From a plasmid, in NCBI RefSeq assembly GCF_056746865.1, contig NZ_JBWKMP010000003.1: DNA of 64,000 nucleotides; one strand, 5' to 3'. Position 1 is the stretch's first letter. Each line of letters begins with the position of its first letter. The position numbers and the translations under genes are program-made. Positions 5,741-54,809 of this stretch are shown here, in pieces. The notes beneath the pieces are model-generated. The model ran no database searches. It had not been told where the DNA came from and was given only the letters and a program-made list of their open reading frames with translations.

Positions 5741-6108
5741 TGGCTATCTCTGTTTTAGAACGCCTGAAATTAGGTAAAGAGCTATCAGATCTAATGCAGG
5801 CGCAGAAAACCGCGCCAGTATTGCAACGCGTCTCAATTGGTAAGCAGATTGTTGATGTGATGCTTAAACTGGGGCTTGGGGCTGCGGCCCAATCAGTATC
5901 GGATCCGCAGGCGCAGCCAGATACTGTTGCAGGTGACATTCCTAAGATAGTGACAGACTTCCTTGGAGGTGCATTCACAAAGTCCACGCAAATGGAATTT
6001 ATTGATGCGCTACGTGGGATCTCAAACTATGTAGGCGAGTTCCTTACGTTGGAACAGGCTAAAGAGCAGACCATAAGCTGGGTGAAAGCCAACGGTTATG
6101 CAGGGTAA
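5740..6108 (+). CDS. Small hypothetical protein (DdrA position)
   Basis: 122 aa, ATGA-coupled to the upstream gene, followed by a terminator. Confidence 0.4.
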   Translation: MAISVLERLKLGKELSDLMQAQKTAPVLQRVSIGKQIVDVMLKLGLGAAAQSVSDPQAQPDTVAGDIPKIVTDFLGGAFTKSTQMEFIDALRGISNYVGEFLTLEQAKEQTISWVKANGYAG

Positions 6109-6111
6109 TCA

Positions 6112-6139
6112 AAGGGGCTGAAATGCCCCTTTCACTTTC
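6112..6139 (+). terminator. Rho-independent terminator-like hairpin
   Basis: aaaggggc-tgaaat-gcccctttc. Confidence 0.5.
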
Positions 6140-6201
6140 CTGTAAGTCCATAAATCACACACTTTTTACACTTCCTGCTTTCTATGTAAGGGGAGTGTAT
6201 T

Positions 6202-7587
6202 TTGAACAAGTCAGTTACTTCCGCGCTATCCGAAGCAGCAGACATTAACAGTGTTATTGCGCTGGTTTCTTCATTAGAGAGGCGAGAAACACGCCAGGGG
6301 CGCAGTAGTTACGTAGTCACCAGTAAAGGGGCAGAGGTAAAGACGGCTTTTAAGGTCGTTGATGCCAGCAGTCTGATCATTTCGAACAACCTTGACGGTA
6401 CGATTAATCCGGCCTTCCCGGAAGAACTCCAACCACGAGATCGTACCCGGCTATCCAGCAAACTCCAGGTTAACCGTATTGCCTCCAATTTACGCCCGGC
6501 ACAATTAACGGATTCCGGTATGAGCAGCCACGGAGCGCCGATAGTTGGTCCGGACAACGTTGTTGAATCCGGCAACGGAAGGAGTATGGGTATCTGGCGT
6601 GCCTATGAGCAAGGACAGGCGGATGAGTATCGCCAGTACCTGATCGACCATGCGAAAGAGTTTGGTCTGAATCCTGACGAAATTTCGCAAATGTCTATGC
6701 CCGTACTGGTGCGAGAAAGACTCACAGATGTAGACCGCGCTCAATTTGCCCGCGATTCAAACATTAGCGATCTGCAAGAGATGGCAGCAAGTGAAAAAGC
6801 GTATGCGGATGCGCAATTTCTCACTGAGAGCGTCATGGCGCTATTTAATCCTTCAGATGATGGAAATCTGCTGGCGCGGTCCAATGATGCGTTTATTCGT
6901 GCGTTTTTGCGCGAAATTGGCGATACAGCGACGGCAGGCTTGCTTACTGCCGATGGGCGTCCCACGAAACAGCTTATCGATCGCATCCAGAATGCAATTT
7001 TTGCCAAAGCGTACAAGGATGAAAGGCTTGTTCGGTTGGTGGCGGAAGAGCCAGATCCGGAAATGCGTAACATCCTTACCGCATTAAATACGGCAGCCAG
7101 CGATTTTGCGCAAATGCAGTCGCTTTCAGGTGATGTTCACCATGACACGGTAACCGGACTGGTAGACGGTATAGAGCAATTGAATGGTCTGGATAAACAG
7201 GCTATAGCAGCACTCCAGGACGCGATTAACCTTGTTCGTGAAGCCAAAGACAACGGTCAGGCAGTGGAAGAGGTGATAGCCCAGCGCGGACTCTTCGGTG
7301 ATAGCACGCCGGAAGCTGAGGCGTTGGCGCTATTCATCGTGGCAAATAATCGAAGCGCGAAGCGCATGGGGGCTGCATTCAAAAAAATGGCACAAAAAAT
7401 CAACGACGAACTGATTCATAAACAGCAGGCGTTGGGCGATATGTTCGGCGGTGGAGATGTCGATCTACGTAGTATTTTGACCGCTGTTTCTAATGAGATT
7501 GAACTGGAACATGGAGAGGGGAAAGGGCTTAACTTCACGATGTTCGAAGCCAAAACAGAACAAAGCGATTTTGGGCTGGAAACCTGA
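6202..7587 (+). CDS. Hypothetical 461-aa protein, probable TTG start
   Basis: Long ORF with RBS aagggga 8 nt upstream of TTG; no recognisable motif by eye; occupies the slot after the dar-like genes. Confidence 0.5.
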   Translation: MNKSVTSALSEAADINSVIALVSSLERRETRQGRSSYVVTSKGAEVKTAFKVVDASSLIISNNLDGTINPAFPEELQPRDRTRLSSKLQVNRIASNLRPAQLTDSGMSSHGAPIVGPDNVVESGNGRSMGIWRAYEQGQADEYRQYLIDHAKEFGLNPDEISQMSMPVLVRERLTDVDRAQFARDSNISDLQEMAASEKAYADAQFLTESVMALFNPSDDGNLLARSNDAFIRAFLREIGDTATAGLLTADGRPTKQLIDRIQNAIFAKAYKDERLVRLVAEEPDPEMRNILTALNTAASDFAQMQSLSGDVHHDTVTGLVDGIEQLNGLDKQAIAALQDAINLVREAKDNGQAVEEVIAQRGLFGDSTPEAEALALFIVANNRSAKRMGAAFKKMAQKINDELIHKQQALGDMFGGGDVDLRSILTAVSNEIELEHGEGKGLNFTMFEAKTEQSDFGLET

Positions 7588-7698
7588 CCTGGCGACCGGA
7601 CACCCCGGATAACCTCCGGGGGATTCGGTATTTCTTCTTTGAATAGAGCGTTTTTAACAAATACCCCGTAAATACTCGCCCAGCAGGGCGGGGAGCAG

Positions 7699-8130
7699 TC
7701 ACCGCATTGGTGTGACAGATACGGCGATATTTTTATTCAGTTGATGCAGTGCCAGCTCGACAGTTTCAACTTTCGATGAATGTTCGACGTCGAGAAGCCG
7801 ATCAATCTGTGTTCCATTTTTTCCGAGTTTGCGCGCCAACTCTGCTTTGCGTGTGCCGGTTTCTATCATCGCGTTGTGGAGTGCAGCCTTCATTGCTGGT
7901 AGCACTGGCAAAGAGACAACGTACTCACCTTCTTTTGGCTCGCTACCAGTGGGAACAGGTCGGCGTTCTTCAATCTCAATCGCAACCGCTGCGACCAATC
8001 CATAACCAGCCTCAAGCAACGCTTCTTCAACTGAGTCACCCACGGAATTAAACAATGGTAGGTCGCGGCATGATACGACATACGCGCCGGTTTTGTCGTC
8101 GCGCTCCAGTTTTACCGGATAGTTAAACAT
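7699..8130 (-). CDS. hicB: HicB antitoxin
   Basis: N-terminal YPVKLERDDKTGAYVVSCRDLP with a C-terminal HTH-like region, matching the HicB family; directly downstream of hicA on the same strand. Confidence 0.85.
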   Translation of the reverse strand: MFNYPVKLERDDKTGAYVVSCRDLPLFNSVGDSVEEALLEAGYGLVAAVAIEIEERRPVPTGSEPKEGEYVVSLPVLPAMKAALHNAMIETGTRKAELARKLGKNGTQIDRLLDVEHSSKVETVELALHQLNKNIAVSVTPMR

Positions 8131-8160
8131 AGAGAAGCTCCTAGTGAAAAAGGCTGGGGC

Positions 8161-8343
8161 TTAAAGCCCCAGGTCCTTCATTATTTTCTTGCGTAGCGGT
8201 TCAGGCATTTCCTTTGAACCGTGGTCCGGGAAAACCGACCGCTTTCCGTTCAGGTTCACTTTCTGATGACTGCCGCCACCAGGCGCTTTCCTGAACTCTG
8301 CCCCTTGCTGGATTAACCAGCGTTTGAACTCTGAATACTTCAC
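8161..8343 (-). CDS. hicA: HicA mRNA-interferase toxin
   Basis: 60 aa, MKYSEFKRWLIQQGAEFRKAPGGGSHQKVNLNGKRSVFPDHG...LRKKIMKDLGL matches the HicA family consensus. Confidence 0.85.
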   Translation of the reverse strand: MKYSEFKRWLIQQGAEFRKAPGGGSHQKVNLNGKRSVFPDHGSKEMPEPLRKKIMKDLGL

Positions 8344-8575
8344 AAGTTTCCTTATGCAATTTATCCATCATGGGCGATAAGAATAGTAACACAAAAGATA
8401 TAAAACACAACAAAAATGTCTATAAACATAACTTCCTTGTTTGGTGGTTGCGTTTTTGGAAAAGCATTTCCGCATATGAAAAAACATCAGCATATGGTGA
8501 AAACAACGAAAAATTACTGATGAAATCACACACTGGATAAGCTGCCACGAAATCGGAAACCTTTTGCGGTGAATC

Positions 8576-10261
8576 ATGGCAACGAAAGACAAAAACAAGG
8601 GCTTTCTGTCGGCATTGAAGAAAGCCTTCAGCGGTGGTGATGTTACGCCTGCCGATCCGGTCGTATTTGCGAGCGGGCATAGCGTCGTTGCTCGTTCTGG
8701 CCTGTCCGCCTTGCGTCCTGGCATCCTGGGGAGCAATAGCGATGGCATGACAAGCGCGGCGGATACTGTATCTATATCGGCAGAATTACCGAGTGACCGC
8801 CTGCAAAAATACAACATACTGGAGACGATGGCGAAAAGTCCGACTATCTCCACAGCATTAAACATTCACATTGCGCATTCTCTGGCTCCATCAAAAAAAA
8901 CAGGCCTCGCATTTATTCTCTCTCCGAAAAATGGGGCGGATAAGGAGGCTGTAAGTCGATGTGAGGAATTGACCGCTGATTTAAGCTCAATGATTAATGA
9001 TGGCCTGCCATCGTGGGCCATGATCATGGCTATTTTCGGTGTGTCGTATATCCGTCCATATGCAGAGCAAGGGAAGGGGATAACTGGAATTGAGTCGAGC
9101 TATTACACGCTCCCTCATTTCGTTCAGGAGTTTTATCGCGGTAGCCAACTTGTCGGATTCAGCGGTGATTATATTCTGGATACGCATACTTTGCGCAGAG
9201 TTATAACCGAACCGTGGAATCTGGTTTCCATGAAAAACCCGTACTGGACGCCTCAGCATAAAGTAATGCCAGTAACTTACGGCACTAAAGGCTATTCCTT
9301 GCTTAGTGAACAGCAGGACAAGCCGTTAATGGAGACGCAGAACTACGGTACGTCGTTTCTTGAATACAGTTATGAACCCTACCTGAATTTATGTGCCGCG
9401 CTTGCTGCGCTGAAAGCAACGCGAAACAACGCTGCAAAAATTGATCGCCTGATTGCACTCACAACGAACACGATAGATCCGGTAAACGCGGCGAATTATA
9501 CGCGCGGGGTCAGCCAGGCACTGAAGCGTCATAGCGACCTCGTAGCGCAACGGTCGATTAATTCTAATGCTCTCCCATCTGTACTTAACCATCTGATACC
9601 CGTCATGGGGGATGGGAAGAACGGGATCACCATTGATACGCAATCTATACCCGCAGATATCAGTGGTATCGAAGACGTTATGTTTCATCTCCGACAGCTC
9701 GCGGCAAGCCTCGGTATTGACGCAACAATGCTTGGCTGGGCTGATCAGATGAGTGGTGGACTTGGAGAAGGCGGTTGGCAGCAAACAGCTATCCAGGCCG
9801 CCTTACGCGCGAACTGGATCAGACAGGCCGCCCAGCGGACTATTTATCGGCTTCATGACATTCACCTCGCTTATAAATACGGGAAGGTTTACACCGAAAA
9901 AAACCGTCCTTATGACGTGCAATTCAACTCAATGAACACAGCTATCCAGGAAGAGGAAAACCGAGAGCTGGATGCGCGCGCCAACTTCGTAGCTGTCATC
10001 TCGCAAATAATGGACCAGATCCAGAACAACCCGAAACTGGCGGGTAGCGACGCGTTTATGCGTTATCTGTTCACCGAACAGCTTCGTATCGACGATGACA
10101 CTCTCAACGTAATGATCCAAGAGTTTAAGGCGAATGAATCAGAGCAAAACAACGAGCATGGTATGTACGAATCCGCGCCGTTGTCGTCCGGTGACGATCC
10201 GGAAAACTGGACGCAAGAACAATTAATCAACTTTGCAAAATTTGTGATGAGCAATAATTAA
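8576..10261 (+). CDS. Putative portal protein (Prt-like)
   Basis: 561 aa ORF immediately upstream of a protease/scaffold-like gene; assignment by size and synteny only. Confidence 0.4.
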   Translation: MATKDKNKGFLSALKKAFSGGDVTPADPVVFASGHSVVARSGLSALRPGILGSNSDGMTSAADTVSISAELPSDRLQKYNILETMAKSPTISTALNIHIAHSLAPSKKTGLAFILSPKNGADKEAVSRCEELTADLSSMINDGLPSWAMIMAIFGVSYIRPYAEQGKGITGIESSYYTLPHFVQEFYRGSQLVGFSGDYILDTHTLRRVITEPWNLVSMKNPYWTPQHKVMPVTYGTKGYSLLSEQQDKPLMETQNYGTSFLEYSYEPYLNLCAALAALKATRNNAAKIDRLIALTTNTIDPVNAANYTRGVSQALKRHSDLVAQRSINSNALPSVLNHLIPVMGDGKNGITIDTQSIPADISGIEDVMFHLRQLAASLGIDATMLGWADQMSGGLGEGGWQQTAIQAALRANWIRQAAQRTIYRLHDIHLAYKYGKVYTEKNRPYDVQFNSMNTAIQEEENRELDARANFVAVISQIMDQIQNNPKLAGSDAFMRYLFTEQLRIDDDTLNVMIQEFKANESEQNNEHGMYESAPLSSGDDPENWTQEQLINFAKFVMSNN

Positions 10262-12575: not shown

Positions 12576-12604
12576 TTGATCTTTCTAATGTTCAGGCTTA
12601 TATT
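12576..12604 (+). promoter_or_regulatory. Sigma70-like promoter with an operator motif in the spacer, driving the immI-like module 1
   Basis: TTGATC, 17-bp spacer containing tttctaatg, then TATATT. Confidence 0.45.
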
Positions 12605-12611
12605 CATGCCG

Positions 12612-12850
12612 TCGTAGCAAATTCTGCGACCAGGTTTGACAGCCTGAATACTTACGCGGACAACCGCACATTTCCGATATTGCGGTATTTTTGTGTCCGT
12701 AAAACCACGTTACGCCCGAATTATGGTGGGGCGTGATGGGGAGGCTTCGGCCTGCTGGTTTCGTAAGTGCCAGTCTGTCAACCCTGTCACGTCCTGCCAC
12801 CTGTTTGACAGCGGGTCGCAGGTTGTTTATCAACTTACGAGGCCGTAACT
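12612..12850 (+). ncRNA. Candidate c4-like antisense RNA / structured leader upstream of the icd-like gene
   Basis: About 240 nt without an ORF between promoter and icd-like start; tttgacag (12632, 12811) complementary to ctgtcaac (12773); P1 immI uses a C4 antisense RNA at the equivalent position. Confidence 0.35.
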
Positions 12851-28487: not shown

Positions 28488-28880
28488 ATGGAGCAAATCA
28501 GTAGCGCCGAAATAGCGGATATCATGATCAGGGCTAACTGCTATCTGACGGTCACCGAAATCACCAGCCGTGCAAAAGCACAATATCCTCACCTTCATGT
28601 GTCGCGCGTAAACGTAAATAACATCATACGTTTTTTTGTTCGTTCCAGTCGTGCCATTTGCGAAATAGACGACCGCGTATACCCCCGGAAATATTGGTTA
28701 CATGGCCTGAATGGATACCAGTTCAAGGTGCGCGGGCGCACTCCTGAATTCGGTCGGCTGTTGGTGAAAAACACCAACCGAAAGATAGAAGCTCAATTAC
28801 GAAAGGAGCAGCGTCAGTTGGTGGCGATGACTAACCAGCTATGGAACGCCGCTGTGAAAAAACGTGAGGCTTCCCTATGA
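28488..28880 (+). CDS. Hypothetical regulator-like protein in the Lpa position (immediately upstream of pacA-like)
   Basis: 130 aa, RBS ggggg-ataa-ATG, overlaps the pacA-like start; function inferred from P1 synteny only. Confidence 0.4.
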   Translation: MEQISSAEIADIMIRANCYLTVTEITSRAKAQYPHLHVSRVNVNNIIRFFVRSSRAICEIDDRVYPRKYWLHGLNGYQFKVRGRTPEFGRLLVKNTNRKIEAQLRKEQRQLVAMTNQLWNAAVKKREASL

Positions 28881-30241
28881 CGTTAATTAACTGGGAAGCG
28901 CATCGAGCTAAGTTCCTGGAGTTAAGAGAAGAAACCGGGATCACCATAAAAGAATATTGCGAGCAGCATGACCTCAGCTTTAACACCGCCAGAAAGCATC
29001 TCAATATGAAAAAAAATGAGGTTAAGGCGAAAGCTAAGGCTACCGGGAAAAGTACAAAACAGCGCGCAAAAAGCAGCGCCACCGGCTCAAAAAAAGAGCA
29101 AAAAAAGGCTAATAAAAGCACAGAATTTACAAAAACTGACAAATCGTTGGCTGGTGGACGGTTCCGCGCCATGCCGCAAAAACAAAATGCGGATCACAAA
29201 GAAAAGCCAAGTAATAACAACAAGATACACAAGGATGTGAAGGGATCATTTTGTGATGAAATGGGAGAAATGATCCCTAAAAGCAGCGATAAAGCCCAAC
29301 GAAACAAGGGATCATTGCAAATGATCCCTGATTCATCAGCTCAAAGCACCACTTTGCCTGCCACCAACGTCGCCCGTGAGATGATGAAGAACGGCGCGAC
29401 TGAACATTTACGACTTGCGATACAGATGGCGCAGGAACGAGCAATTCAGTATCAGGCTATCGTTGACCAGGAAGCGGAGCGACTACAGGAAGAGATTGAC
29501 GCCCTCGGTGATACACAGCCAGAGGGGATGCACCCAGGGCAGCGTCTTCTCGGACTGATCAGCGATGCGGCCTACTACATGAATGACTTTATCACCAGGC
29601 TGGCAGCCATCTATCAGAACGAGCAGAAGCTACGCCAGGGGGATGAAAAACTTGCGCAGGGCGCGCGTCAGCAGGCATTCAGGGAGGCTGAGGCCAGAGA
29701 AAAACTGGCGATTGCCCGCCTACAAGCCGAGCAGCGTGGCAAGGAGATTGAGTATCGCATTGGCGCTGACGCACGCGCCGCCAGGGTTATCGCCGCCGCT
29801 ATACGTATGCGTGAGCGCGAGGAGCTGGATGATATAGGTGTTGCTGAATATATCGAGCGGCAGGGCGTCAGTGTCCCGGCTATCCTGGCGGCACGAGCGG
29901 CAAAAGCGATCTCACTTCTGGAGCCTCCGGTTTCTGACGTTAACGATGTTGATGATGAGCAACTGGATAAAGAGGCGAAGCAGTTTGCCGAGCAACAAGC
30001 TGGACTCCCACAATGGCTTGCACAACGCCGGGCTGAAGTAGCGAAAATCGTTGATAGGCTTGGGATGGGGGATTACGACCGGAACGGAGAACGTAAAGCC
30101 GGTGAATTTGAGGCCAATGATGAAGACCTGAATATAGACCCTTCCGCGACGGCTGATATCTACGGTGATTATGACGCGGGGGATACCGGTTTTGATGCTG
30201 TAGATGACGAGATTGCGATAGACCAGCCGGAGGATGACTAA
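28877..30241 (+). CDS. PacA-like terminase small subunit (contains pac-like hexamer cluster)
   Basis: 454 aa immediately upstream of and coupled (ATGA) to the large terminase; HTH-like N-terminus, acidic C-terminal tail; internal cluster of Dam-site hexamers like the P1 pac site inside pacA. Confidence 0.55.
   Translation: MTLINWEAHRAKFLELREETGITIKEYCEQHDLSFNTARKHLNMKKNEVKAKAKATGKSTKQRAKSSATGSKKEQKKANKSTEFTKTDKSLAGGRFRAMPQKQNADHKEKPSNNNKIHKDVKGSFCDEMGEMIPKSSDKAQRNKGSLQMIPDSSAQSTTLPATNVAREMMKNGATEHLRLAIQMAQERAIQYQAIVDQEAERLQEEIDALGDTQPEGMHPGQRLLGLISDAAYYMNDFITRLAAIYQNEQKLRQGDEKLAQGARQQAFREAEAREKLAIARLQAEQRGKEIEYRIGADARAARVIAAAIRMREREELDDIGVAEYIERQGVSVPAILAARAAKAISLLEPPVSDVNDVDDEQLDKEAKQFAEQQAGLPQWLAQRRAEVAKIVDRLGMGDYDRNGERKAGEFEANDEDLNIDPSATADIYGDYDAGDTGFDAVDDEIAIDQPEDD
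29191..29327. promoter_or_regulatory. pac-like site: five GATC-containing hexamers (GGATCA x3, TGATCC x2) including two inverted copies of AATGATCCCT
   Basis: Hexamers at 29191, 29243, 29271, 29309 and 29322; aagggatcatt and aaatgatccct each occur twice. Confidence 0.5.
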
Positions 30242-31749
30242 TGGCTGGTGGTCGTAAGATTAAGTGCGTCACCAGTGATCCACGTTGGCGCGATATGGTT
30301 ATCAGGTATCGATACAACTTTACCCAGGCGGTTGTCGATATTTTTGGGATGTTCCCCTCCCACCAGCAGCAGCAGATCATTCAGTCAGTGCAGGAGACGG
30401 GGAGCAGGACGACCGTTACGTCCGGACACGGAACGGGTAAGTCGTCCCTTACCGCGATGTTGCTACTAATTTTTATGATCCTGTTCCCCGACGCCCGCGT
30501 CATTATTGTTGCGAACAAAATAGGCCAGGTAAAAACAGGCGTATTCAAATACGTGAAACAGTTTTGGGCGAATGCTGTTAAGCGCCACGGCTGGTTACAG
30601 ACCTATTTTGTCCTGTCTGACACCATGTTTTATGAGCGTTCCCGTAAAGGGATATGGGAAGTGCTCTGTAAAGGTTATCGACTCGGTAACGAAGAGGCAC
30701 TGGCGGGGGAGCACGCGGAGCATTTACTGCTAATCCTTGATGAAGCATCGGGCATATCCGATAAGGCGATTAACGTCATGACGGGGGCGTTAACGCAGAA
30801 AGATAACCGTATGCTCATGCTTTCCCAGCCTACGCGTCCAAGCGGTTACTTTTATGAATCTCACCATTCAAGGGCAAAGGCAGAAGGCAATCCGGAAGGT
30901 GTCTGGACGGCAATAGTCCTTAACTCTGAAGAATCACCATTCGTTGAACCGAGCTTTATTCGTGAGAAATTGCTGGAGTACGGCGGCAGGGATTCGCTGG
31001 AGTACATGGTTAAGGTGCTGGGCCAGTTCCCGCGTGCAATTAACGGGTATTTGCTTGGTCGTGATGAGTGCGACCGCGCCGCACGGCGTAAAGTGTTGCT
31101 GGAGAAAGATTGGGGCTGGGTAGCGACCGCTGACGTCGGTAATGGTCGCGATAAATCGGTGCTCAATATATGCAAAGTATCCGGTTATCGTGAGAAACGA
31201 CGCGTTGTGAACTTTAAGATACTGGAGATGCCAGGCACTATGGACCCGTTGGCTTTTGCCGACTTTATCTATAACGAATGCACTCCTGATAAATACCCGA
31301 ACATCACCATTGCTGTGGATGCTGATGGCTTTGGTTCAGATACGTGTGCGCAGCTTGTCCGCCGTGGTGCTAATCCCGTTCGCATCCGTTGGGGTAAGCC
31401 TATGTTTGCGCTAAGAGACAGAGAACGCTTTGTCAATCAGCGTGCTTACGCCAATATTATGGCAGGGGATGCCATTAAATCCGGGCGTATGCGTATCGAT
31501 AGTGACCCCAAAACCGCAGATCAGGCATCAAAAATCCCGTATATGCTTAACGAAGAAGGGAAGGTAGCGATGATGCGCAAGGAGCACATGCGGCAGAAGT
31601 TAAACATCAAGTCACCGGACAGATGGGATACCTACTGCTTCACTATGCTGGTGGATTACGTGCCTGCTAATGAAGACATTGGCGCAGAACTCGCAACATT
31701 CCGCGATCAGGTGTTGGCAGAAGTGGATATTCCTGATATTGACATTTAA
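30241..31749 (+). CDS. PacB-like terminase large subunit
   Basis: 502 aa; P-loop GHGTGKSS, Walker B LLLILDEASG, C-terminal nuclease-like region with VDADGFG; coupled to the upstream small-subunit gene. Confidence 0.75.
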   Translation: MAGGRKIKCVTSDPRWRDMVIRYRYNFTQAVVDIFGMFPSHQQQQIIQSVQETGSRTTVTSGHGTGKSSLTAMLLLIFMILFPDARVIIVANKIGQVKTGVFKYVKQFWANAVKRHGWLQTYFVLSDTMFYERSRKGIWEVLCKGYRLGNEEALAGEHAEHLLLILDEASGISDKAINVMTGALTQKDNRMLMLSQPTRPSGYFYESHHSRAKAEGNPEGVWTAIVLNSEESPFVEPSFIREKLLEYGGRDSLEYMVKVLGQFPRAINGYLLGRDECDRAARRKVLLEKDWGWVATADVGNGRDKSVLNICKVSGYREKRRVVNFKILEMPGTMDPLAFADFIYNECTPDKYPNITIAVDADGFGSDTCAQLVRRGANPVRIRWGKPMFALRDRERFVNQRAYANIMAGDAIKSGRMRIDSDPKTADQASKIPYMLNEEGKVAMMRKEHMRQKLNIKSPDRWDTYCFTMLVDYVPANEDIGAELATFRDQVLAEVDIPDIDI

Positions 31750-31786: not shown

Positions 31787-32824
31787 TTACCAGAGTTTTG
31801 CCGCGTACATCGTTTGTGTGAATGTGTACCCATAGCGTTCTTCAACGCTTTTACCGTATTTTTTCCTGGCTTCAGTAAGGCGGATGCCTGTCAGGTCATC
31901 GCCGGAGGCAATCATAACTTCCAGTAGTTCCAGGTCCATTTTATCCAGCCTTGCCATTGCATCTTTAGCCTCTTGAATTTTCCGGCTAACGATCTGGTGT
32001 ATGGCTGGATCGGCTTCGGCCAGCATTTTATCTGATTTGTTTTTTAAACTCTGATTGCGGATATCAATGTTTCTCAGGATATATGACTTCACGACGTAGC
32101 TTGGCTGCTGCTTTTCCAGATCACGAACCCGATAAAGGTCAAATTCGCCGAGAAGTCCGCACGGAAGCGGTTTAATGCCAGTGTAAATGGTAAGGGTGCG
32201 GCGCTCACCAACGTTGTTAACAACGGGAATCTCTGTGTTTGCTTTTTTTGCAAAGATCAGCGCACCGTGCGTACCCACTCTGAAGCGTGAAAGTCCATTG
32301 TTGCCCTCAATATTGGTGGTAATCACCACATCGGTATAACCTTCTTTTCTTGCGCGGTATACCTCGCCCTCACGTTCAGCGGCGAAGAATCTGCGTTCTT
32401 CTTCAAGCGCACCGACAACCTGTGAAAATATCCTGTTTTTCATGCTTTTCTTTATAGTTTTATCGTATTTTTTCAGCAGGTCTTCGCGCGTAAATGTTCT
32501 CGTTGTGGTTGCGCTTTGCATAACGATGTGCGTACTCTGATTAGTATCCTCAACAATGAATGGGATCGGTAAATAAACCGACTCAACAATGTTTGAGGCT
32601 TTGTCATCATCCTTGCGACACAGATCAACAAAGGCTTTCCATTCGGCTATGCATTTTTCAGCTTCTTCTAATACAGCCGGATCATGTGTTAATGCAACAT
32701 GGCGAAATTCCTCGCCAACATAACTGGTATCATGGAAAACAGAGTTTGCGACCACCAGCTCTTTCCACCTTTCAGCGGTTTGCAGGAACCGTTTGTACTC
32801 ATTCTCGATCGACTTCTTACTCAT
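31787..32824 (-). CDS. Hypothetical 345-aa protein; candidate immunity repressor (P1 c1 position: convergent with pacB, next to lox/cre)
   Basis: Best start is the internal ATG (MSKKSIENEY) with RBS aggaa; an operator motif TGTTAGAAAA lies immediately upstream on the coding strand; no recognisable domain by eye. Confidence 0.45.
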   Translation of the reverse strand: MSKKSIENEYKRFLQTAERWKELVVANSVFHDTSYVGEEFRHVALTHDPAVLEEAEKCIAEWKAFVDLCRKDDDKASNIVESVYLPIPFIVEDTNQSTHIVMQSATTTRTFTREDLLKKYDKTIKKSMKNRIFSQVVGALEEERRFFAAEREGEVYRARKEGYTDVVITTNIEGNNGLSRFRVGTHGALIFAKKANTEIPVVNNVGERRTLTIYTGIKPLPCGLLGEFDLYRVRDLEKQQPSYVVKSYILRNIDIRNQSLKNKSDKMLAEADPAIHQIVSRKIQEAKDAMARLDKMDLELLEVMIASGDDLTGIRLTEARKKYGKSVEERYGYTFTQTMYAAKLW

Positions 32825-32843
32825 TATTCCTACTCGATTTAGT

Positions 32844-32853
32844 TTTCTAACAT
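32844..32853. promoter_or_regulatory. Operator motif TTTTCTAACA in the promoter of the repressor-candidate gene
   Basis: Dispersed motif family member; a second copy at about 32927-32941. Confidence 0.45.
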
Positions 32854-33019
32854 AAAAGTCCTGTGACAAATTTATGCTGAATAACAAGGTGAGTAAAGGA
32901 TAAAACCGCTTTTTTTTGATTGTTCCTATTAGAAAATGTAACCAGGAGCGGCTACCGCATGGCTGACGGATTTGCGAAGTGATCTGGTCGGTGTTTTTTT
33001 GGGAAAAAAGTTCCGATTT

Positions 33020-33053
33020 CTAACTTTAAATAATTGGCATTATTTAAAGTTAG
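33020..33053. promoter_or_regulatory. lox-like recombination site (13-8-13): CTAACTTTAAATA ATTGGCAT TATTTAAAGTTAG
   Basis: Perfect 13-bp inverted arms around an asymmetric 8-bp spacer; same architecture as loxP and 9/13 arm identity to it; 150 bp upstream of the Cre-like gene. Confidence 0.7.
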
Positions 33054-33204
33054 GCTATAATCTCCAGTAAACAGGCAGTATTGACAAGGATGAAAAATCA
33101 TGCCTCGAATCAAAGGCTTGAATTTTGAAAATTAACTTATAACTACCCTGTCAGTTTTCTATTTTTCACGTAGCGTTATCTGTATATAGAGGTTTAATAG
33201 TTTC

Positions 33205-34233
33205 ATGGGTGAACTAGTTATCTCCGGCGGTTCTGGTGGTTTTCTGCGCGATATTGGCACCGAATACCAGGAAGCTGCAAAAAACTTTATGCAGTTCATG
33301 AACGACCAGGGAGCTTATGCTCCAAATACGCTTCGAGATCTCCGTCTGGTGTTTCATTCCTGGGCGCGGTGGTGTAATTCGCGCCAGCGCCCCTGGTTCC
33401 CGATTACGCCGGAAATGGCCCGCGAGTATCTTCTCCAGTTGCATGAGGCCGATCTGGCCTCGACCACCATTGATAAGCACTATGCCATGCTTAACATGCT
33501 GCTTTCGCAATGTGGCCTCCCGCCGCTGTCGGACGATAAAAGTGTGTCTCTGGCCATGCGGCGCATCCGGCGCGAAGCGGCAACGGAAAAAGGCGAGCGA
33601 ACAGGCCAGGCTATACCGTTGCGGTGGGATGATCTGAAATTGCTCGACGTGTTGCTGTCCCGTTCCGAGCGGCTGGTGGACCTGCGCAATCGGGCGTTTC
33701 TCTTCGTGGCATACAATACCCTGATGCGTATGTCAGAAATCTCGCGCATCCGCGTCGGAGATCTGGACCAAACAGGTGACACTGTAACGCTGCATATTTC
33801 ACACACGAAGACCATCACGACCGCCGCCGGACTTGATAAGGTGCTTTCTCGTTACACTACCGCCGTACTGAACGACTGGCTGGAGGTGTCCGGACTTCGA
33901 GAACATCCGGACGCGGTGCTATTCCCGCCAATACACCGCAGTAATAAGGCCAGAATCACGACAACGCCCCTTACTGCACCTGCAATGGAGAAAATATTCA
34001 GCGATGCCTGGGGGTTGCTGAACAAACGAGATGCCACGCCGAACAAAGGAAGATACCGGACGTGGACAGGCCATAGTGCGCGTGTTGGTGCGGCAATTGA
34101 TATGGCTGAGAAACAGGTGTCAATGGTCGAGATCATGCAGGAAGGTACATGGAAAAAGCCCGAAACACTTATGCGATATTTGCGCCGTAGCGGGGCATCC
34201 GTTGGTGCAAATAGTCGCCTGATGGACTCATAA
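33205..34233 (+). CDS. cre: Cre-like tyrosine site-specific recombinase
   Basis: Colinear similarity to P1 Cre as I recall it (SWARWCNSRQRPWFP..., NMLLSQCGLPPLSDDKSVSLAMRRIRRE, WTGHSARVGAAIDMA, C-terminal Tyr in LMRYLRR); ORF-track start is non-ATG. Confidence 0.9.
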   Translation: MGELVISGGSGGFLRDIGTEYQEAAKNFMQFMNDQGAYAPNTLRDLRLVFHSWARWCNSRQRPWFPITPEMAREYLLQLHEADLASTTIDKHYAMLNMLLSQCGLPPLSDDKSVSLAMRRIRREAATEKGERTGQAIPLRWDDLKLLDVLLSRSERLVDLRNRAFLFVAYNTLMRMSEISRIRVGDLDQTGDTVTLHISHTKTITTAAGLDKVLSRYTTAVLNDWLEVSGLREHPDAVLFPPIHRSNKARITTTPLTAPAMEKIFSDAWGLLNKRDATPNKGRYRTWTGHSARVGAAIDMAEKQVSMVEIMQEGTWKKPETLMRYLRRSGASVGANSRLMDS

Positions 34234-34277
34234 ATTAATTTTCTAACAACCTTTTTAGACAGTGCATTTTAATGTAA

Positions 34278-34306
34278 AGTACCCTCGCCTATTGCGGAGG
34301 GTACTT
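34278..34306 (+). terminator. Strong hairpin after cre-like (no T-run)
   Basis: aagtaccctcgc-ctatt-gcggagggtactt. Confidence 0.4.
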
Positions 34307-34650
34307 TGCACAATCGTATTACGGAATCAAAACGCTTCACTGTTGACGGTTACACCATAACCTTCACTGCGGGCGTTAAGCGCGACCAGGCGGTCGTGGT
34401 GTTCGGTGTTATGACCGGACTTGATGCCGTTCCCGTATTTACCCTCGAAAAAAACTGGCGAAATCTGGAGGAAGCTGAACGCTACGTCCGGAAAGTAACC
34501 GTCATTGCTGCTGAAAAACTCCTGGCCCACTATCAGGAAAATTATCGCGCTATGACCGAGAAAATTAACCATGTTTTCACTCGCCCCACCAGCGGCTTCA
34601 TTGCCCCTGATGCGAATGCCGGGCGCTATCCGGCAAGGGGGCGCAAATGA
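34306..34650 (+). CDS. Hypothetical protein (start uncertain, TTG or internal ATG)
   Basis: 114-aa ORF. Confidence 0.3.
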   Translation: MHNRITESKRFTVDGYTITFTAGVKRDQAVVVFGVMTGLDAVPVFTLEKNWRNLEEAERYVRKVTVIAAEKLLAHYQENYRAMTEKINHVFTRPTSGFIAPDANAGRYPARGRK

Positions 34651-35135
34651 AAACTTACTACCCATCCCTGAACTGTTATCCAACCACTAATCCTGAGCTG
34701 TCAGGGAAACTTCTGTCCCTCCTGGCTGATAGTCCTGATGAATGGCATAAGCCTGGTGATATCAACACACAGTTCCCTGAGTACGGGTGTATCCGCACCC
34801 GAAATGAGCTGAAGAACCTCATTGCTCACGGTTTTGTCCGTCACCGTAGCGGGAAAGGCTATCAGTTGGCTATCCCACAAGGAGAGGCAAGAGAACTCTT
34901 TGGCTATCGAGAAAGCCAGACGCAAGCGCGGGTGATCGCAGAAATTATCCGTAATGGCAGCGTCTATGCCCGCAAATTCTGGCTGTCTGGCGGTGGTGAT
35001 GCATCACAGTTCTTGCGTGCTGTGCGATCGCTGGAGGAACAAGGTGTTATCGAGAATACCTGCGTCTCCGTTCCGACCGCTCCGCATATCAAACGCCGGA
35101 TTTATACATTTACCCGGAGAGCTAAAAAGCAATGA
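34647..35135 (+). CDS. Hypothetical protein (162 aa)
   Basis: ATGA-coupled ORF in an operon with dut. Confidence 0.45.
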   Translation: MKTYYPSLNCYPTTNPELSGKLLSLLADSPDEWHKPGDINTQFPEYGCIRTRNELKNLIAHGFVRHRSGKGYQLAIPQGEARELFGYRESQTQARVIAEIIRNGSVYARKFWLSGGGDASQFLRAVRSLEEQGVIENTCVSVPTAPHIKRRIYTFTRRAKKQ

Positions 35136-35626
35136 TTAACGTGAAAGTGAAACGCCTTCATCCGGCGGCAAAACTCCCCGTTTACGCCACCGCCGGATCG
35201 GCGGCGATGGATTTTGTTGCTGTTGAAATAACGCCGGGTATCGATAGCAACGGCGCTATTTCCTCAAGCTGGTGGGTGCATACCGGCCTCGCTATGGCGA
35301 TCCCTCCTGGCTGGTGTCTGAAACTTTATCCTCGTTCCGGATTGGGCTGCAAAAAGCATACGCGCCTGGCTAACTGCGTAGGAATTATCGACTCCGATTA
35401 TCGCGGTGAAATCAAAGCAAAACTGATTACAGATCCCGGTGGTGAAGGCGTTTGCCTCAAGCCAGGAATGGCGGTCATGCAAGGCATTTTTGAGCGTGTT
35501 GAACCGGTATCGCTGGTAGAAGTTGATGAACTCGATGAAACAGAGCGAGGTGCTGGTGGCTTTGGTAGCACATCGGAAGACCGCATTGAAATCAAGCGTA
35601 CACCGCTTCAGTACGCAAAGTTTTAA
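35132..35626 (+). CDS. dut: dUTPase (trimeric dUTP pyrophosphatase)
   Basis: All hallmark motifs: AAMDF, PRSGLG, GIIDSDYRGEI, RGAGGFGSTS. Confidence 0.85.
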   Translation: MINVKVKRLHPAAKLPVYATAGSAAMDFVAVEITPGIDSNGAISSSWWVHTGLAMAIPPGWCLKLYPRSGLGCKKHTRLANCVGIIDSDYRGEIKAKLITDPGGEGVCLKPGMAVMQGIFERVEPVSLVEVDELDETERGAGGFGSTSEDRIEIKRTPLQYAKF

Positions 35627-35640
35627 GTAGAGGAAAGGCT

Positions 35641-36291
35641 ATGAATAACATGCCAACGAAAGAGCTTTTTAAGTTCCTTCCCAAATACAAAGCTCACAAA
35701 AACGTTAGTGCATCGAAAATTAAAAATGTTGTTATTTTCGGAGTAACTGATGCCCCACTTTGGGGCTGCATCGAACTCGTTGAACCAAAAGGGGCAACAG
35801 TTTGTGTTGACGCAATGTTTTTACAAAAACACCGACCAAAAACTGGCGGGTATCTGATCGTTTATGAAAACGGTTATCTGTTCTATGCCCCGGAGAAACC
35901 ATTTGAGGAATGCTATGGCCTGGTTAACGACGCCTCCAAAAATGGAACCACGGTCATCATTACGGATGACAACGGCGTGATGATTAATCTTACTGGGAGC
36001 GTAACTATTTCTGCTGGTGGCATCACCACCCAGCAAGAAGAAATCGACCTTGAAGCAGCCGACTTCTCTGATGCGCTAATGTGGTTGAAGGAAGGCAAGA
36101 AAGTTGCCCGACGCGAGTGGAAAGGCGAAAAGCAATTCTGCTGGTTAGTTCTCGCTGGAAGCGTCAATTTACACGGCATTCACGTTCCTTATGGTGACCA
36201 TTTTGTATTGAAAGATGCACAAAATATGGACAGCGTTTGGTTGCCGTCTGTGGATGATTTACTGGCCTGTGACTGGTTTGTTGTGGAGTGA
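35641..36291 (+). CDS. Two-domain protein with a C-terminal DUF2829 (Tad2-like) domain
   Basis: C-terminal FSDALMWLKEGKKVARREWKGEKQFCWLVLAGS ... VWLPSVDDLLACDWFVVE fits the DUF2829 pattern; N-terminal ~140 aa unassigned. Confidence 0.6.
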   Translation: MNNMPTKELFKFLPKYKAHKNVSASKIKNVVIFGVTDAPLWGCIELVEPKGATVCVDAMFLQKHRPKTGGYLIVYENGYLFYAPEKPFEECYGLVNDASKNGTTVIITDDNGVMINLTGSVTISAGGITTQQEEIDLEAADFSDALMWLKEGKKVARREWKGEKQFCWLVLAGSVNLHGIHVPYGDHFVLKDAQNMDSVWLPSVDDLLACDWFVVE

Positions 36292-36297
36292 TTTAAC

Positions 36298-37104
36298 GTG
36301 GAAAATACCAAGAACATTCAATATCGCTTGCGTAACGGCCTGCTGGTGGATGTAAACGATGATATGTCCCTGCCCTTTGCCACCATTGAGCGAACCATCC
36401 TTACATACCTGGGCTTAGACGAAGAGTTAGATAGTGAGAATGGCATTGCTATCTGGCGTGACGGAAAAACGGGAGTCAGACGTTTTATTACGGCAAGAGG
36501 CATTCAGTGCACACAGGAAGAATTGTTTGAACTGGCGCAGTCTTATGGATGCATCGCGTTAGATCCCCTGTATGACCCAGCCATAGCACAACAACTCATT
36601 CGAGAGCTGTCGCTTTCGGTCACGCCAATAATCTTCCGCCAGGGAACCTTAACCGGCACATGGCGTGTAGAACGCATCTCTAAATATCAGCCATATAATA
36701 TCCATTTGAACGGCACTATTACTGGTGTGGATCAACCAGTAGCAGGTGAAAACAAAGACCTGGAACTTGCAGTAATGATGGCAGCTTGTCGCGTGCTTGG
36801 CCTGGGCAAGCAGATGTTTATCCATTTCCCAAACGGCGCGGAAGGCGAAGTAGAGCTGATTTCCTGCGACTTTTCCTTAACCTGGATGCTTGATGAATTC
36901 CTGGACAAAACAGTATTCCGTGCTGAAGAACTGGATATGTATGTCACCTCAAGTATTCCTAATGACGTGAAAGTTGAGGCCATCGCTACAGCCAGGGCGA
37001 AATGCCGTGCGGCGATTGCAGAACAGGCCAAAGAAGAACAGTCCGATGAAGTCGCGGCAGATGTGGAGGCAGAGGTAGCGGAGGATGCTGATGCTGACGC
37101 CTAA
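36298..37104 (+). CDS. Hypothetical protein with acidic C-terminal tail, coupled to the terminase-like paralog
   Basis: 268 aa, GTG start per ORF track; overlaps the next gene by 20 nt. Confidence 0.45.
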   Translation: MENTKNIQYRLRNGLLVDVNDDMSLPFATIERTILTYLGLDEELDSENGIAIWRDGKTGVRRFITARGIQCTQEELFELAQSYGCIALDPLYDPAIAQQLIRELSLSVTPIIFRQGTLTGTWRVERISKYQPYNIHLNGTITGVDQPVAGENKDLELAVMMAACRVLGLGKQMFIHFPNGAEGEVELISCDFSLTWMLDEFLDKTVFRAEELDMYVTSSIPNDVKVEAIATARAKCRAAIAEQAKEEQSDEVAADVEAEVAEDADADA

Positions 37105-38191
37105 AAACATCACCGAATTACCAGAGTGGAGAGAGCTGGTAAGCAAATATAGCCATGACTGGGCATTAGCAGCAGAAGAGTTGATGGGTGTTAAGTTAAC
37201 CCACCAGCAAAAGCTAATTGTTGAGGCGATTCAACAAAAAGGTTCAGCAGTCAGCGTCACCACTCCTGAAGGGATAGGCCAAAAGACGGTTATCGCTATA
37301 ATTAGTATTCTTTATACAATCCTGATGCCTGAGTCTAAAACGGTTATTGTTTCCCCAAAGTTCTATAATTGTCGCAGGCAAGTTATCCAATACATAAGTA
37401 CGTATTGGGATAGAGTCAGTAACAGAATCCCATTGCTGGGAGAATATTTTAAAGTCGACGGAAACGGCATCAATCATCGTTACCGGGAATATTGGGGCTG
37501 CGAAATTAAGCCATATCACCGAAATTATGAGGAAGGTTTCGGTGGATATTATGCTGAACATCTTTTAATCATTGTTACGGAGGCGGCTCTTGCTGGCGAT
37601 CGGCTATTCAGCATGTTAAGAGCATCGTTAGTAAGTGACGATTCACGTATACTTTTAATGTCCGCTCCTTCAGAGGAGGAGCATGGACACTTTTACGATT
37701 CCCATCATGGTCGTGCAAAATCAGAAGAAAATCCATGTGGTATTTATACAGCCATCAAGCTGAACGCAGAAGATACCCCCATTATTTCACAAGGTTATCT
37801 TGATAACATTGCAGAAATATATGGTGGTAAAAACAGCGATTACTACCGTCGCATGATTCTTGGTGAGTTTCCAGGTATTAGGGAGGCTGTTCTTGAATCA
37901 GATATGCCGAAAACAATGCGCTTTTCGATGCCTGATGGTAGTGAATGGATAATGCCATTACGAGTGATAGCCCGGCATCATGCACAGCACCACGCCAAAA
38001 AACATGGCGTTACAACATTGGAGTGGTTGAAATCGCACACCATTCCACTCTTCACTGCAGATCACAATGCTATCGTTGAGTGGGCAAAAACAATTCCGTG
38101 GGAGAATGTCGCTGAATACGCCCACATGCTAAAACCGCCGAAAGACAGGCAAGAAATTAGCTGGCTGACAGCAGAAAAAATCATTGAGTGA
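37085..38191 (+). CDS. Terminase-large-subunit-like ATPase-domain paralog with degenerate Walker motifs and no nuclease domain
   Basis: Alignable to the PacB-like gene (HQQKLIVEAIQQ / HQQQQIIQSVQE; HGHFYDSHHGRAKSEENPCGIYTAIKLNAEDTP / [33 protein letters not shown]), but P-loop reads GIGQKT instead of GTGKS and Walker B reads VTE instead of LDE; 368 aa without the VDADGFG nuclease region. Confidence 0.6.
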   Translation: MLMLTPKNITELPEWRELVSKYSHDWALAAEELMGVKLTHQQKLIVEAIQQKGSAVSVTTPEGIGQKTVIAIISILYTILMPESKTVIVSPKFYNCRRQVIQYISTYWDRVSNRIPLLGEYFKVDGNGINHRYREYWGCEIKPYHRNYEEGFGGYYAEHLLIIVTEAALAGDRLFSMLRASLVSDDSRILLMSAPSEEEHGHFYDSHHGRAKSEENPCGIYTAIKLNAEDTPIISQGYLDNIAEIYGGKNSDYYRRMILGEFPGIREAVLESDMPKTMRFSMPDGSEWIMPLRVIARHHAQHHAKKHGVTTLEWLKSHTIPLFTADHNAIVEWAKTIPWENVAEYAHMLKPPKDRQEISWLTAEKIIE

Positions 38192-38226
38192 TAGTAGGAA
38201 GCCCGCCTGGTTGAGCGGGCTTCTTT

Positions 38227-38607
38227 TCAAATATTGGAACCATATAGTTCACGTAGTTTATCCGCTACTGAAGATACGGGGATTTCACCAGTTGCAGCCC
38301 CCACCGCAAGTTCCACCAGCACGGGAGAATCATATACCTGTATACCGTTACGGCGTAGAAATAGCAGCGCACTGTTTAGCGCGGTACGCTTATTGGCATC
38401 ATTGAATATATGCCCTCTCGCTGTAGCCACCAGGTAGGTGGCGGAGACTTCGAAAAGGTCGGTGATCTCTTCGTAGGCAACTCTGGCCTGAACTCTCCCG
38501 ATAATGGCCTCTGCCCTGCCCGGATCTGACATGCCAGGCAGGCCGCCGTAGCGGCTTATATTCGCATCATGAAGCGCAATAAGTTCTTCCGGTGATATAT
38601 GCCTCAT
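38227..38607 (-). CDS. doc: Doc toxin (Fic-fold kinase) of the phd/doc addiction module
   Basis: 126 aa; [78 protein letters not shown] matches P1 Doc as I recall it almost residue for residue. Confidence 0.92.
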
Positions 38608-38828
38608 TATCGGTTAACCAGTTCCTTGTTGGTGGAGTCCAGGGTGTCAAACAGGGATGCAAATTCAGCATCCAGCGCCGCTTTTTTGTAGGCTTCGAAA
38701 GTAGCCTTGCTGACAATTACTGCTGGCTCACGGCCTCTGCGGGTGATTTCAACCTCTTCCCCGGCTTCAACATTGTTGAGCACTTCAGAAAGGTTGCCAC
38801 GCGCGGTACGGAAGTTAATGGATTGCAT
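38607..38828 (-). CDS. phd: Phd antitoxin
   Basis: [73 protein letters not shown] matches P1 Phd as recalled; stop overlaps the doc start. Confidence 0.92.
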
Positions 38829-38900
38829 AAACACCTCGTGTACTCGTTATGTGTACACAATTATAAACTTCACAGGCATAAAGCACCAGCACTTTGCAGC

Positions 38901-39290
38901 TTAAATAACCGGACAATCATCAAATTCCCCACTTCGGGCATCATTGATGACATGAGTGATCACACCAAAAACAGCATTACTGCCCGTGTATCCATCGTCA
39001 TCTACTGGTAACGCCTCTTTCTTCCCGGTGCTTAAGTCCTCCAGGTGCTGGCGCGGATACTTCCTGTATCTCTTTATGCGATATTCACCCTCCATAGCGC
39101 ACACAAGCAGAGAACCATCAACCGGAGTAAGCGAGGAATCAACCACCAGCAAAGCACCCTGCAATATTCCCTCACGGTGATGGCTATCAGCTGCCCGCAT
39201 GAAGTAGGTCGCTGAAGGATGTCTAATTATCTGCTGATCAAGAGAAATTCGGCTTTCAACATAATCCGCCGCAGGAGAAGGGAAGCCCAT
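38901..39290 (-). CDS. humD: HumD-like UmuD' homolog
   Basis: GFPSPAADYVESRISLDQQIIRHPSATYF aligns with UmuD; lacks the N-terminal autocleavage segment like P1 HumD; lies upstream of phd/doc as in P1. Confidence 0.8.
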   Translation of the reverse strand: MGFPSPAADYVESRISLDQQIIRHPSATYFMRAADSHHREGILQGALLVVDSSLTPVDGSLLVCAMEGEYRIKRYRKYPRQHLEDLSTGKKEALPVDDDGYTGSNAVFGVITHVINDARSGEFDDCPVI

Positions 39291-54496: not shown

Positions 54497-54602
54497 GAAA
54501 ACACACAGTTGCGCCCTGGCATTATCGTGGGGTATATTTCTACGGCACCTTAGAAAAACGGGTGCCGGGATTGGAACCCCGGATAATGTCAAAGGCGACA
54601 CA

Positions 54603-54624
54603 GACGCCGAACGCGTCTTTTTTT
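54603..54624 (+). terminator. Rho-independent terminator
   Basis: gacgc-cgaac-gcgtc followed by ttttttt. Confidence 0.6.
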
Positions 54625-54639
54625 GTGTCATGCCATCGC

Positions 54640-54809
54640 ACAGCCATACTTAGCGTTTAGCTCAGAGATCAATGGTAGTGCTGGCTGGGCTGCCGAAAGG
54701 CAGGCCGGTTCCCTTTGACGCCGGTAGTTCCAACCCAGTCAGTGCTACCGCCATTGAGATTGGAACCTCACGCGGTAGCTCCTTAACTTAGTCAAAGGAG
54801 GCTGCCAAT
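54640..54809 (+). ncRNA. Candidate c4-like antisense RNA / structured leader of the immI-like module 2
   Basis: ORF-free ~170 nt with long-range complementarity (tcaatggtagtgctg / cagtgctaccgccattga; gttccaa / ttggaac) directly upstream of the icd-like RBS. Confidence 0.35.

Follow-up and report, generated by a model that had tools for sequence, protein, structure and literature searches.

The gene treated here is already known: it is the annotated dut of phage D6, deposited in 2004 in the immC-region record AY753669 as a 'probable dUTPase' (AAV84952) and present in the complete genome NC_050154 as a 'dUTP diphosphatase' (YP_009914792), and it is annotated in over 100 plasmid records as well. 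What we say of D6 rests on these GenBank annotations; enzymatic or genetic data for a D6-type Dut were not found in the searchable literature. Phage P1 has no dut; there, pdcA, pdcB and lpa come after doc.

In dUTPases of the homotrimeric type, motif III provides the catalytic base and the sugar gate, and the Gln of motif IV positions the catalytic water. The motif IV Arg lies near the beta/gamma-phosphates. In the M-PMV dUTPase this Arg touches the gamma-phosphate through water alone and 'might not be essential', and crystallography finds it mostly disordered (PMC3905902). Some staphylococcal phage Duts have a further element, motif VI (residues about 95-127 of Dut80alpha), which is reported in the work of Penades and Marina to be essential for recognition of the repressor Stl, a requirement that the Vertessy group disputes (both in PMC4914113).

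We analysed 64,000 nucleotides of plasmid DNA (contig NZ_JBWKMP010000003.1 of assembly GCF_056746865.1), hereafter called the window, in which an earlier note made from the sequence had pointed to a dUTPase gene at 35132-35626. With a probability of about 0.8, this open reading frame is the dut gene of a plasmid prophage of the phage D6 kind, and its product is a classical dUTP diphosphatase of the homotrimeric type that would serve dUTP sanitation of the phage-plasmid DNA. The enzyme would hydrolyse dUTP to dUMP and PPi and so prevent uracil from entering the DNA of the phage-plasmid (roughly 90 kb), in plasmid as well as in lytic replication.

Assignment of the element to the D6-like plasmid prophages

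The features of the window on which the assignment and the following sections draw are these:

28877..30241: pacA
30241..31749: pacB
31787..32887, minus strand: c1
33021..33052: rox site, 32 bp
33205..34233, plus strand: Dre-type tyrosine recombinase gene (PF00589, PF02899), first gene of the string
34306..34650, plus strand: orfA, of unknown function, 114 aa (PHROG 1968); the syntenic counterpart of orf117 in D6
34647..35135, plus strand: orfB, of unknown function, 162 aa (PHROG 6669); the syntenic counterpart of orf116 in D6, with a stop codon that overlaps the start of dut
35132..35626, plus strand: dut, 164 aa plus stop, homotrimeric-type dUTP diphosphatase (open reading frame listing, profiles, PDB matches, AF2 model)
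35641..36291, plus strand: Tad2-like gene, 216 aa, with a C-terminal Tad2-like/DUF2829 domain (PF11195, 66.7 bits)
36298..37104, plus strand: isaA-like gene, 268 aa (PHROG 2326), conserved as a neighbour downstream of dut
37085..38191, plus strand: ORF368, paralogous to the N-terminal half of the terminase PacB, without a canonical Walker A
38227..38834, minus strand: doc/phd, beyond ORF368

The order pacA-pacB-c1-rox-dre is that of D6 as given in AY753669. The rox site is identical to the D6 Dre recombination site, annotated as rox in both AY753669 and NC_050154: it has 0 mismatches to D6, and 100 shuffles gave 0 matches. The recombinase has 94% amino-acid identity to D6 Dre, with a dN/dS of 0.04. 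A search for P1-type C1 operators (ATTGCTCTAATAAATTT), allowing up to 3 mismatches, gave 0 matches in the window, which fits a repressor of the D6 type with another specificity. When a 6-kb query around dut was compared with the P1 and P7 records, these matched only its phd/doc/humD end, i.e., 12% of the query, in keeping with the suggestion of the earlier note that P1 has no dUTPase. Judged by site, gene order and recombinase, the window can be assigned to a phage D6-like (Dre/rox) plasmid prophage and not to P1 proper (Punavirus).

Family and fold of the dut product

The product of the open reading frame is recognised by curated profiles at scores above their cut-offs: PF00692 of Pfam with 50.5 bits (cut-off 22), and in NCBIfam TIGR00576 with 117.4 (cut-off 102.55) and the dUTP diphosphatase equivalog NF001862 with 117.2 (cut-off 103). 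It also matches PHROG 135, 'dUTPase', at E=6e-61. Among PDB sequences, 58 solved dUTPases match it at E<=1e-3, the best being that of Rickettsia (7n56, E=1e-23). An AF2 monomer model built on a 53-sequence alignment has a mean pLDDT of 87.8 and a pTM of 0.76, and when it was compared with the PDB by Foldseek all 50 of the matches listed were dUTPases, with E down to 9e-13 and TM scores, normalised to target length, of 0.78-0.91 to solved dUTPases. The C-terminal motif V arm of the model is extended and has a lower pLDDT, as expected for a flexible arm. The protein is thus predicted with confidence to have the dUTPase beta jelly-roll fold, and profiles and matches together mark the open reading frame as a real dUTPase-family gene. 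This bears out the claim of the earlier note that a phage-encoded, trimeric-type dUTPase lies here; the homotrimer itself we infer from family membership.

Models of the bifunctional dCTP deaminase / dUTPase (Dcd-Dut) gave no match, since only dut models in NCBIfam (E<=0.01) and only PF00692 in Pfam were hit. Within the window, tblastn found no second dut and no dcd-like gene.

Organisation of the gene string

Seven genes, dre-orfA-orfB-dut-Tad2-like-isaA-like-ORF368, lie on one strand with short gaps or overlaps, dut being the fourth, so that dut is placed between the recombinase gene, which had been described as cre-like, and doc/phd, as had been noted. The neighbours had also been named correctly as Tad2-like and as a pseudo-terminase: ORF368 is 33% identical to the pacB product of the window over 258 aa. 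The ATG of dut overlaps the stop of orfB (ATGA), and a GGAGAG stands upstream of dut at 35116..35121. A consensus scan of the region gave two signals that might delimit a transcription unit:

33034..33061, plus strand: candidate sigma-70-like promoter, TTGGCA-16-TATAAT, 11/12 consensus positions, overlapping rox
38205..38228, plus strand: terminator-like hairpin plus T-rich tail, just after ORF368 and convergent with doc

The hairpin may be the end of a dre-to-ORF368 transcription unit. We propose that dut would be co-transcribed with dre from the putative promoter overlapping rox and translationally coupled to orfB through the ATGA overlap, and that by these two routes Dut might already be made in the lysogen. 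In the same scan, promoter-like sites of the region were not above chance in number, and neither were terminator-like sites (10 found versus 6.2 +/- 2.9 expected); with consensus matches at chance frequency, joint transcription of dre and dut and expression in the lysogen can only be inferred.

Two further candidates were rejected. A terminator-like hairpin inside dut (35191..35206) overlaps the codons of motif I and belongs to the class of sites whose count is not above chance. A P1-type late promoter upstream of dre was considered with the P1 late-promoter -22 boxes AAGTTACTT and ATGTGACTT as the comparison; the sequence 'AAGTTAGGC' abuts the TATAAT without the 9-nt gap. Rfam models at gathering thresholds gave no structured RNA at 33000..39000.

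Conservation of dut across plasmids and prophages

Among 5,426 complete E. coli genomes, 102 carry dut, always on a plasmid and once per genome, and 98 carry a Dre-type recombinase (at least 80% identity), a ratio of about 1:1. In PLSDB, dut occurs on 129 plasmids (99 of Escherichia, 23 of Salmonella, 6 of Shigella and 1 of Pantoea), almost all of about 90 kb and non-mobilizable, in which the gene is annotated dut; over the dut locus, several plasmids agree with the window at 98.6-99.4% identity. A second recombinase variant, with about 79% DNA identity, is found on IncY P1-like plasmids, and in the one IncY example inspected IS26 truncates the string directly behind the recombinase gene, and dut is missing.

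The gene order pacA-pacB-c1(minus)-recombinase-orfA-orfB-dut-isaA-like is also that of more distant plasmid prophages, whose Dut proteins have 68% identity to that of the window in a Raoultella-type contig (L006), 52% in an 85-kb Pantoea-type contig (L007) and 50% in a Pantoea agglomerans plasmid (L005). Relative to its D6 ortholog, dut has a dN/dS of 0.127 (0.04 to 0.30 for its neighbours), with residues 56-121 nearly invariant, values that indicate purifying selection. Because it accompanies the Dre-type recombinase at about 1:1, keeps its place in distant relatives and has this low dN/dS, we regard dut as part of the conserved backbone in the wider D6 group.

The Tad2-like gene is present only in the Escherichia clade and is absent from L005, L006 and L007, and the D6 copy is without residues 21-99. 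ORF368 is absent from D6 and is found at full length in only 8 of the 5,426 E. coli genomes. On these distributions, the Tad2-like gene and ORF368 are the only neighbours of dut that behave as variable accessory inserts. The proposal of the earlier note that the block around its 'Tad2-like fusion' is an accessory island thus applies to these two genes and not to dut, for which the near 1:1 occurrence with the recombinase (102 versus 98), the synteny at 50-68% identity and the dN/dS all argue the opposite. Conservation across related genomes, which the earlier note had named as speaking against its own proposal, is largely observed: dut is absent from P1 and P7 themselves and is conserved in D6 and its relatives.

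Some natural relatives have a frameshifted or truncated dut (P0005, P0014, P0017). Such damage implies that at least some hosts can maintain the plasmid without an intact dut, as is expected where the host has its own Dut. Another relative (P0004) has a natural dut::Tad2-like fusion, whose junction is a deletion at a 10-bp microhomology (TGCTGGTGGC) that takes out the FGST part of motif V, including the Phe. We considered this fusion as a sign of functional linkage between dut and the Tad2-like gene and rejected it, because the microhomology deletion destroys motif V.

Active-site motifs and the function of Dut

Residue counts refer to an alignment of 115 sequences, i.e., the window protein and 114 database hits, each of at least 135 aa. 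The motifs and the tail are as follows:

35195..35215, plus strand: motif I, GSAAMDF, with Asp27 (D27 in 115/115)
35330..35347, plus strand: motif II, PRSGLG, with Arg68-Ser69 (R68 and S69 in 115/115)
35381..35407, plus strand: motif III, GIIDSDYRG, with the catalytic Asp87 and Tyr90 (D87, D89 and Y90 in 115/115)
35468..35482, plus strand: motif IV, atypical, MAVMQ; Gln117 retained, Ala114 where Arg is conserved
35546..35575, plus strand: motif V, RGAGGFGSTS, with the Arg139 finger and the Phe144 lid (R139 in 114/115, F144 in 111/115)
35576..35623, plus strand: 16-residue tail after motif V, EDRIEIKRTPLQYAKF, from the alignment; pLDDT 46-60

It had been stated that all canonical motifs are intact. 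This is correct for motifs I, II, III and V and for Gln117, and incorrect for the Arg of motif IV, where the protein has Ala114. Motif V keeps R139, G140, G143 and F144 (RGxxGFGS(T/S)), and the Gln117 column holds Gln in 114 of the 115 sequences. Motif IV reads GMAVMQG in the window Dut, whereas solved enzymes read (D/E/M)RIAQ; an adjacent change replaces Ala with Met at position 116. The Arg column holds Arg in 95 of the 115 sequences and another residue in 20: Ala in P0042 and in the D6 clade (10 hits besides the window protein), and Val in six relatives with long tails, among them the Pantoea-type protein P0018 of L007. We do not treat this Arg as family-defining, because it may not be essential (PMC3905902) and is missing from 20 of the 115 sequences in the alignment. 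Its absence is read as a clade-specific deviation and not as evidence of inactivation, and might possibly reduce the activity of the D6-clade enzyme; in our preferred reading, in which Dut remains a sanitation enzyme, the clade-wide loss would tune catalysis without abolishing it.

Variation among close relatives sits mainly in three places, and the core is nearly invariant. The first is the beta-hairpin loop between motifs I and II, which has 12-17 extra residues in the Klebsiella/Raoultella proteins; the other two are the loop at 100-108 and the tail that follows motif V. In its 16-residue form, this tail is confined to the Escherichia D6 clade and is predicted to be disordered.

These traits could also be read as those of a distinct subfamily. 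In that case, D6-type Duts, with their missing motif IV Arg, hypervariable hairpin loop and clade-specific tail, would perhaps be made constitutively with Dre, from a promoter embedded in rox, and have a partly non-catalytic function. We consider this unlikely. If it were true, the role of Dut would extend beyond nucleotide-pool sanitation during lytic growth, e.g., to binding, gated by dUTP, to a regulator of the host, of a satellite or of a phage, or to the shielding of a low-copy plasmid prophage from loss or immunity triggered by uracil excision.

Even less probable is that Dut acts in signalling and, besides or instead of catalysis, binds a partner, for instance the repressor of a satellite or of a prophage, with its specificity coming from the variable loop at the surface (about residues 29-47) and from the C-terminal tail peculiar to the clade. 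The concentration of variation in the motif I-II hairpin loop, the 100-108 loop and the tail, around a nearly invariant core, would suit this reading, and so would the atypical motif IV of the D6 clade, as the motif IV region also influences Stl binding in staphylococcal Duts (PMC4914113). Yet the motif VI insert is absent, the distance from D87 to Q117 being 30 residues versus 29 in E. coli Dut, and the best-matching of the staphylococcal phage Dut structures (4gv8) reaches no more than E=9e-4. Moreover, the partner has no candidate, variation of surface loops between genera is ordinary, and the dN/dS of 0.13 gives no sign of diversifying selection over the whole gene. A PADLOC scan of the six downstream operon proteins, orfA to ORF368, gave no match. 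With neither a motif VI insert nor such a match among the operon proteins, the earlier suggestion of a moonlighting dUTPase finds no support.

Just as improbable as a signalling role is that the loss of the motif IV Arg has made the Dut of this clade a pseudo-enzyme, i.e., a low-turnover dUTP binder kept for a non-catalytic reason. The substitution is certainly systematic, with Ala in every member of the D6 clade and Val in the six long-tailed relatives, against Arg in 95 of 115, and it is accompanied by the neighbouring change to Met116. Nevertheless, all residues whose catalytic role is established (the Asp of motif III, the Arg and Ser of motif II, the Gln of motif IV, and in motif V the Arg of the finger and the Phe of the lid) are invariant or nearly so, the window Dut still scores above the NCBIfam equivalog cut-off, and the residue that was lost is one that crystallography finds mostly disordered and limited to water-mediated contacts (PMC3905902).

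Finally, an anti-defence module formed by Dut and the adjacent Tad2-like protein, directed against uracil-directed restriction or against nucleotide depletion by dCTP deaminases, which raises deoxyuridine nucleotides, is suggested by the PF11195 domain of the neighbour and by the variable inserts of the region and is highly improbable, given that the adjacency is found only in the Escherichia D6 clade, that Raoultella- and Pantoea-type elements have dut at the equivalent place without a Tad2-like gene, that the dut::Tad2-like fusion is a motif V-destroying deletion and not a functional Rosetta-stone fusion, that PADLOC gave no match from orfA to ORF368, and that phages commonly carry dUTPase genes, with 1,945 matching phage records.

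The result places the window among the D6-like (Dre/rox) phage-plasmids and not with P1, and it has little significance beyond correct annotation: dut belongs to the conserved backbone of that lineage, next to the recombinase, and should not be taken for a novel gene of the accessory or anti-defence kind. A plasmid-prophage clade without the motif IV Arg may, in turn, serve as a natural test case for the role of that residue. A residual curiosity is that a dUTPase is retained beside a plasmid-resolution recombinase.

Relation to described dUTPases

Outside the plasmid-prophage group, the nearest phage dUTPases are those of virulent and temperate enterobacterial phages, e.g., Escherichia phages KS_W4 and CSP1C and Cronobacter phage CSP1, with about 50% identity in the catalytic core; they sit in genome contexts unrelated to that of the window. 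Database homologs that are more distant, with an identity similar to that of these three, keep the canonical (D/E)RIAQ motif IV.

The staphylococcal phage Duts of phi11 and 80alpha, which derepress SaPIbov1 by binding Stl, are likewise phage-encoded, of the trimeric type and endowed with motifs I-V. Unlike them, the window Dut has no motif VI insertion, and the similarity to 4gv8 is marginal. We know of no Stl-like partner in Enterobacteria.

With the classical homotrimeric dUTPases (E. coli, M. tuberculosis, human) the window Dut has in common the five-motif architecture, the jelly-roll and the flexible motif V arm. It is 38% identical to E. coli Dut and 33-41% identical to the solved enzymes listed, and it differs from the classical enzymes in the Ala that replaces the motif IV Arg, in the 16-residue tail and in being encoded by a phage-plasmid. 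In sequence, the gene is clearly not a recent copy of a host gene.

The described system that the locus resembles in gene place as well as in protein is that of D6. Its dut is an ortholog at the same place in the gene string, downstream of rox and dre. The two strings differ in that D6 has an internally deleted, 146-aa copy of the Tad2-like gene where the window has the full-length 216 aa, and in that D6 has pdcA where the window has ORF368. The RefSeq dut copies on D6-like plasmids of E. coli and Salmonella are closer still, reaching up to 99.4% DNA identity to the window dut (e.g., NZ_CP085065, NZ_CP104667). The D6 Dut itself has 87.8% protein identity to that of the window, i.e., 20 amino-acid differences, and shares with it both the atypical motif IV and the C-terminal tail.

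Promoter-like site at rox and the fate of the dre-dut string

The string of genes on one strand that begins with dre is preceded by a recombination site in which a candidate promoter is embedded:

33021..33061, exact D6 rox site with a near-consensus sigma-70-like promoter (TTGGCA-16-TATAAT)

Since the -35 element of this promoter covers the rox spacer and the -10 element abuts the right arm of rox, the arrangement suggests that the dre-dut string could be autoregulated through binding of Dre at rox.

A variant of the region is found in the IncY plasmid p1506-1 (NZ_CP059289.1), itself a resistance or metabolic cargo plasmid:

7001..9463 of NZ_CP059289.1, region of a Dre-like recombinase variant (88% protein identity, ~79% DNA identity)

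There a truncated orfA comes after the recombinase gene, with IS26 behind it, so IS26 activity has removed the orfB-dut segment from the string in p1506-1.

RNA genes elsewhere in the window

12598..12804, + strand, C4 antisense RNA locus 1 (c4-a1b1 target element 12598..12650, C4 12719..12804)
54545..54755, + strand, C4 antisense RNA locus 2 (isrK-like sRNA 54545..54623, then C4 54668..54755)
26040..26111, 26117..26189 and 26897..26969, + strand, three tRNA genes (Rfam)

The two C4 loci are separate, and the 64-kb window may therefore hold two antisense immunity modules of the immI type.

Long-tailed Dut proteins

Six of the database homologs of Dut (P0016, P0018-P0021 and P0023) are long proteins of 193-218 aa, with low-complexity C-terminal tails of 45-70 residues that are rich in Thr, Ala, Pro and Ser and close with K-K-T-T-S-K-like sequences; all six have Val at the position of the motif IV Arg. 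One of their genes lies in a Pantoea-type element:

6001..6651 of the Pantoea-type 85-kb contig (L007), gene of the long-tailed Dut P0018

The dut annotated in a Pantoea agglomerans plasmid (L005, 5842..6438) is of comparable length by its annotation (198 aa).

ORF368 and the Tad2-like gene

37085..38191, + strand, ORF368, diverged paralog of the window's own PacB terminase (N-terminal, ATPase half)
35641..36291, + strand, Tad2-like gene, 216-aa product (PF11195 and PHROG 11049)

ORF368 is 33% identical to PacB (30241..31749) over 258 aa, and its protein lacks a canonical Walker A motif (GxxxxGK[ST]). Among 5,426 complete E. coli genomes, just 8 have it at full length and ~37 others have its 3' half alone; D6 lacks it.

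In the Tad2-like protein, the N-terminal domain (PHROG 11049) has no assigned function, and the C-terminal one is a Tad2-like/DUF2829 domain (PF11195). A natural 241-aa dut::Tad2-like fusion (P0004, 15 member sequences), from which the motif V Phe is gone, can be attributed to a 10-bp microhomology, TGCTGGTGGC, that is common to motif V of dut (35546..35575) and the Tad2-like gene (~36040..36060). The Raoultella- and Pantoea-type relatives lack the Tad2-like gene, and the D6 ortholog is internally deleted, keeping residues 1-20 and 100-216.
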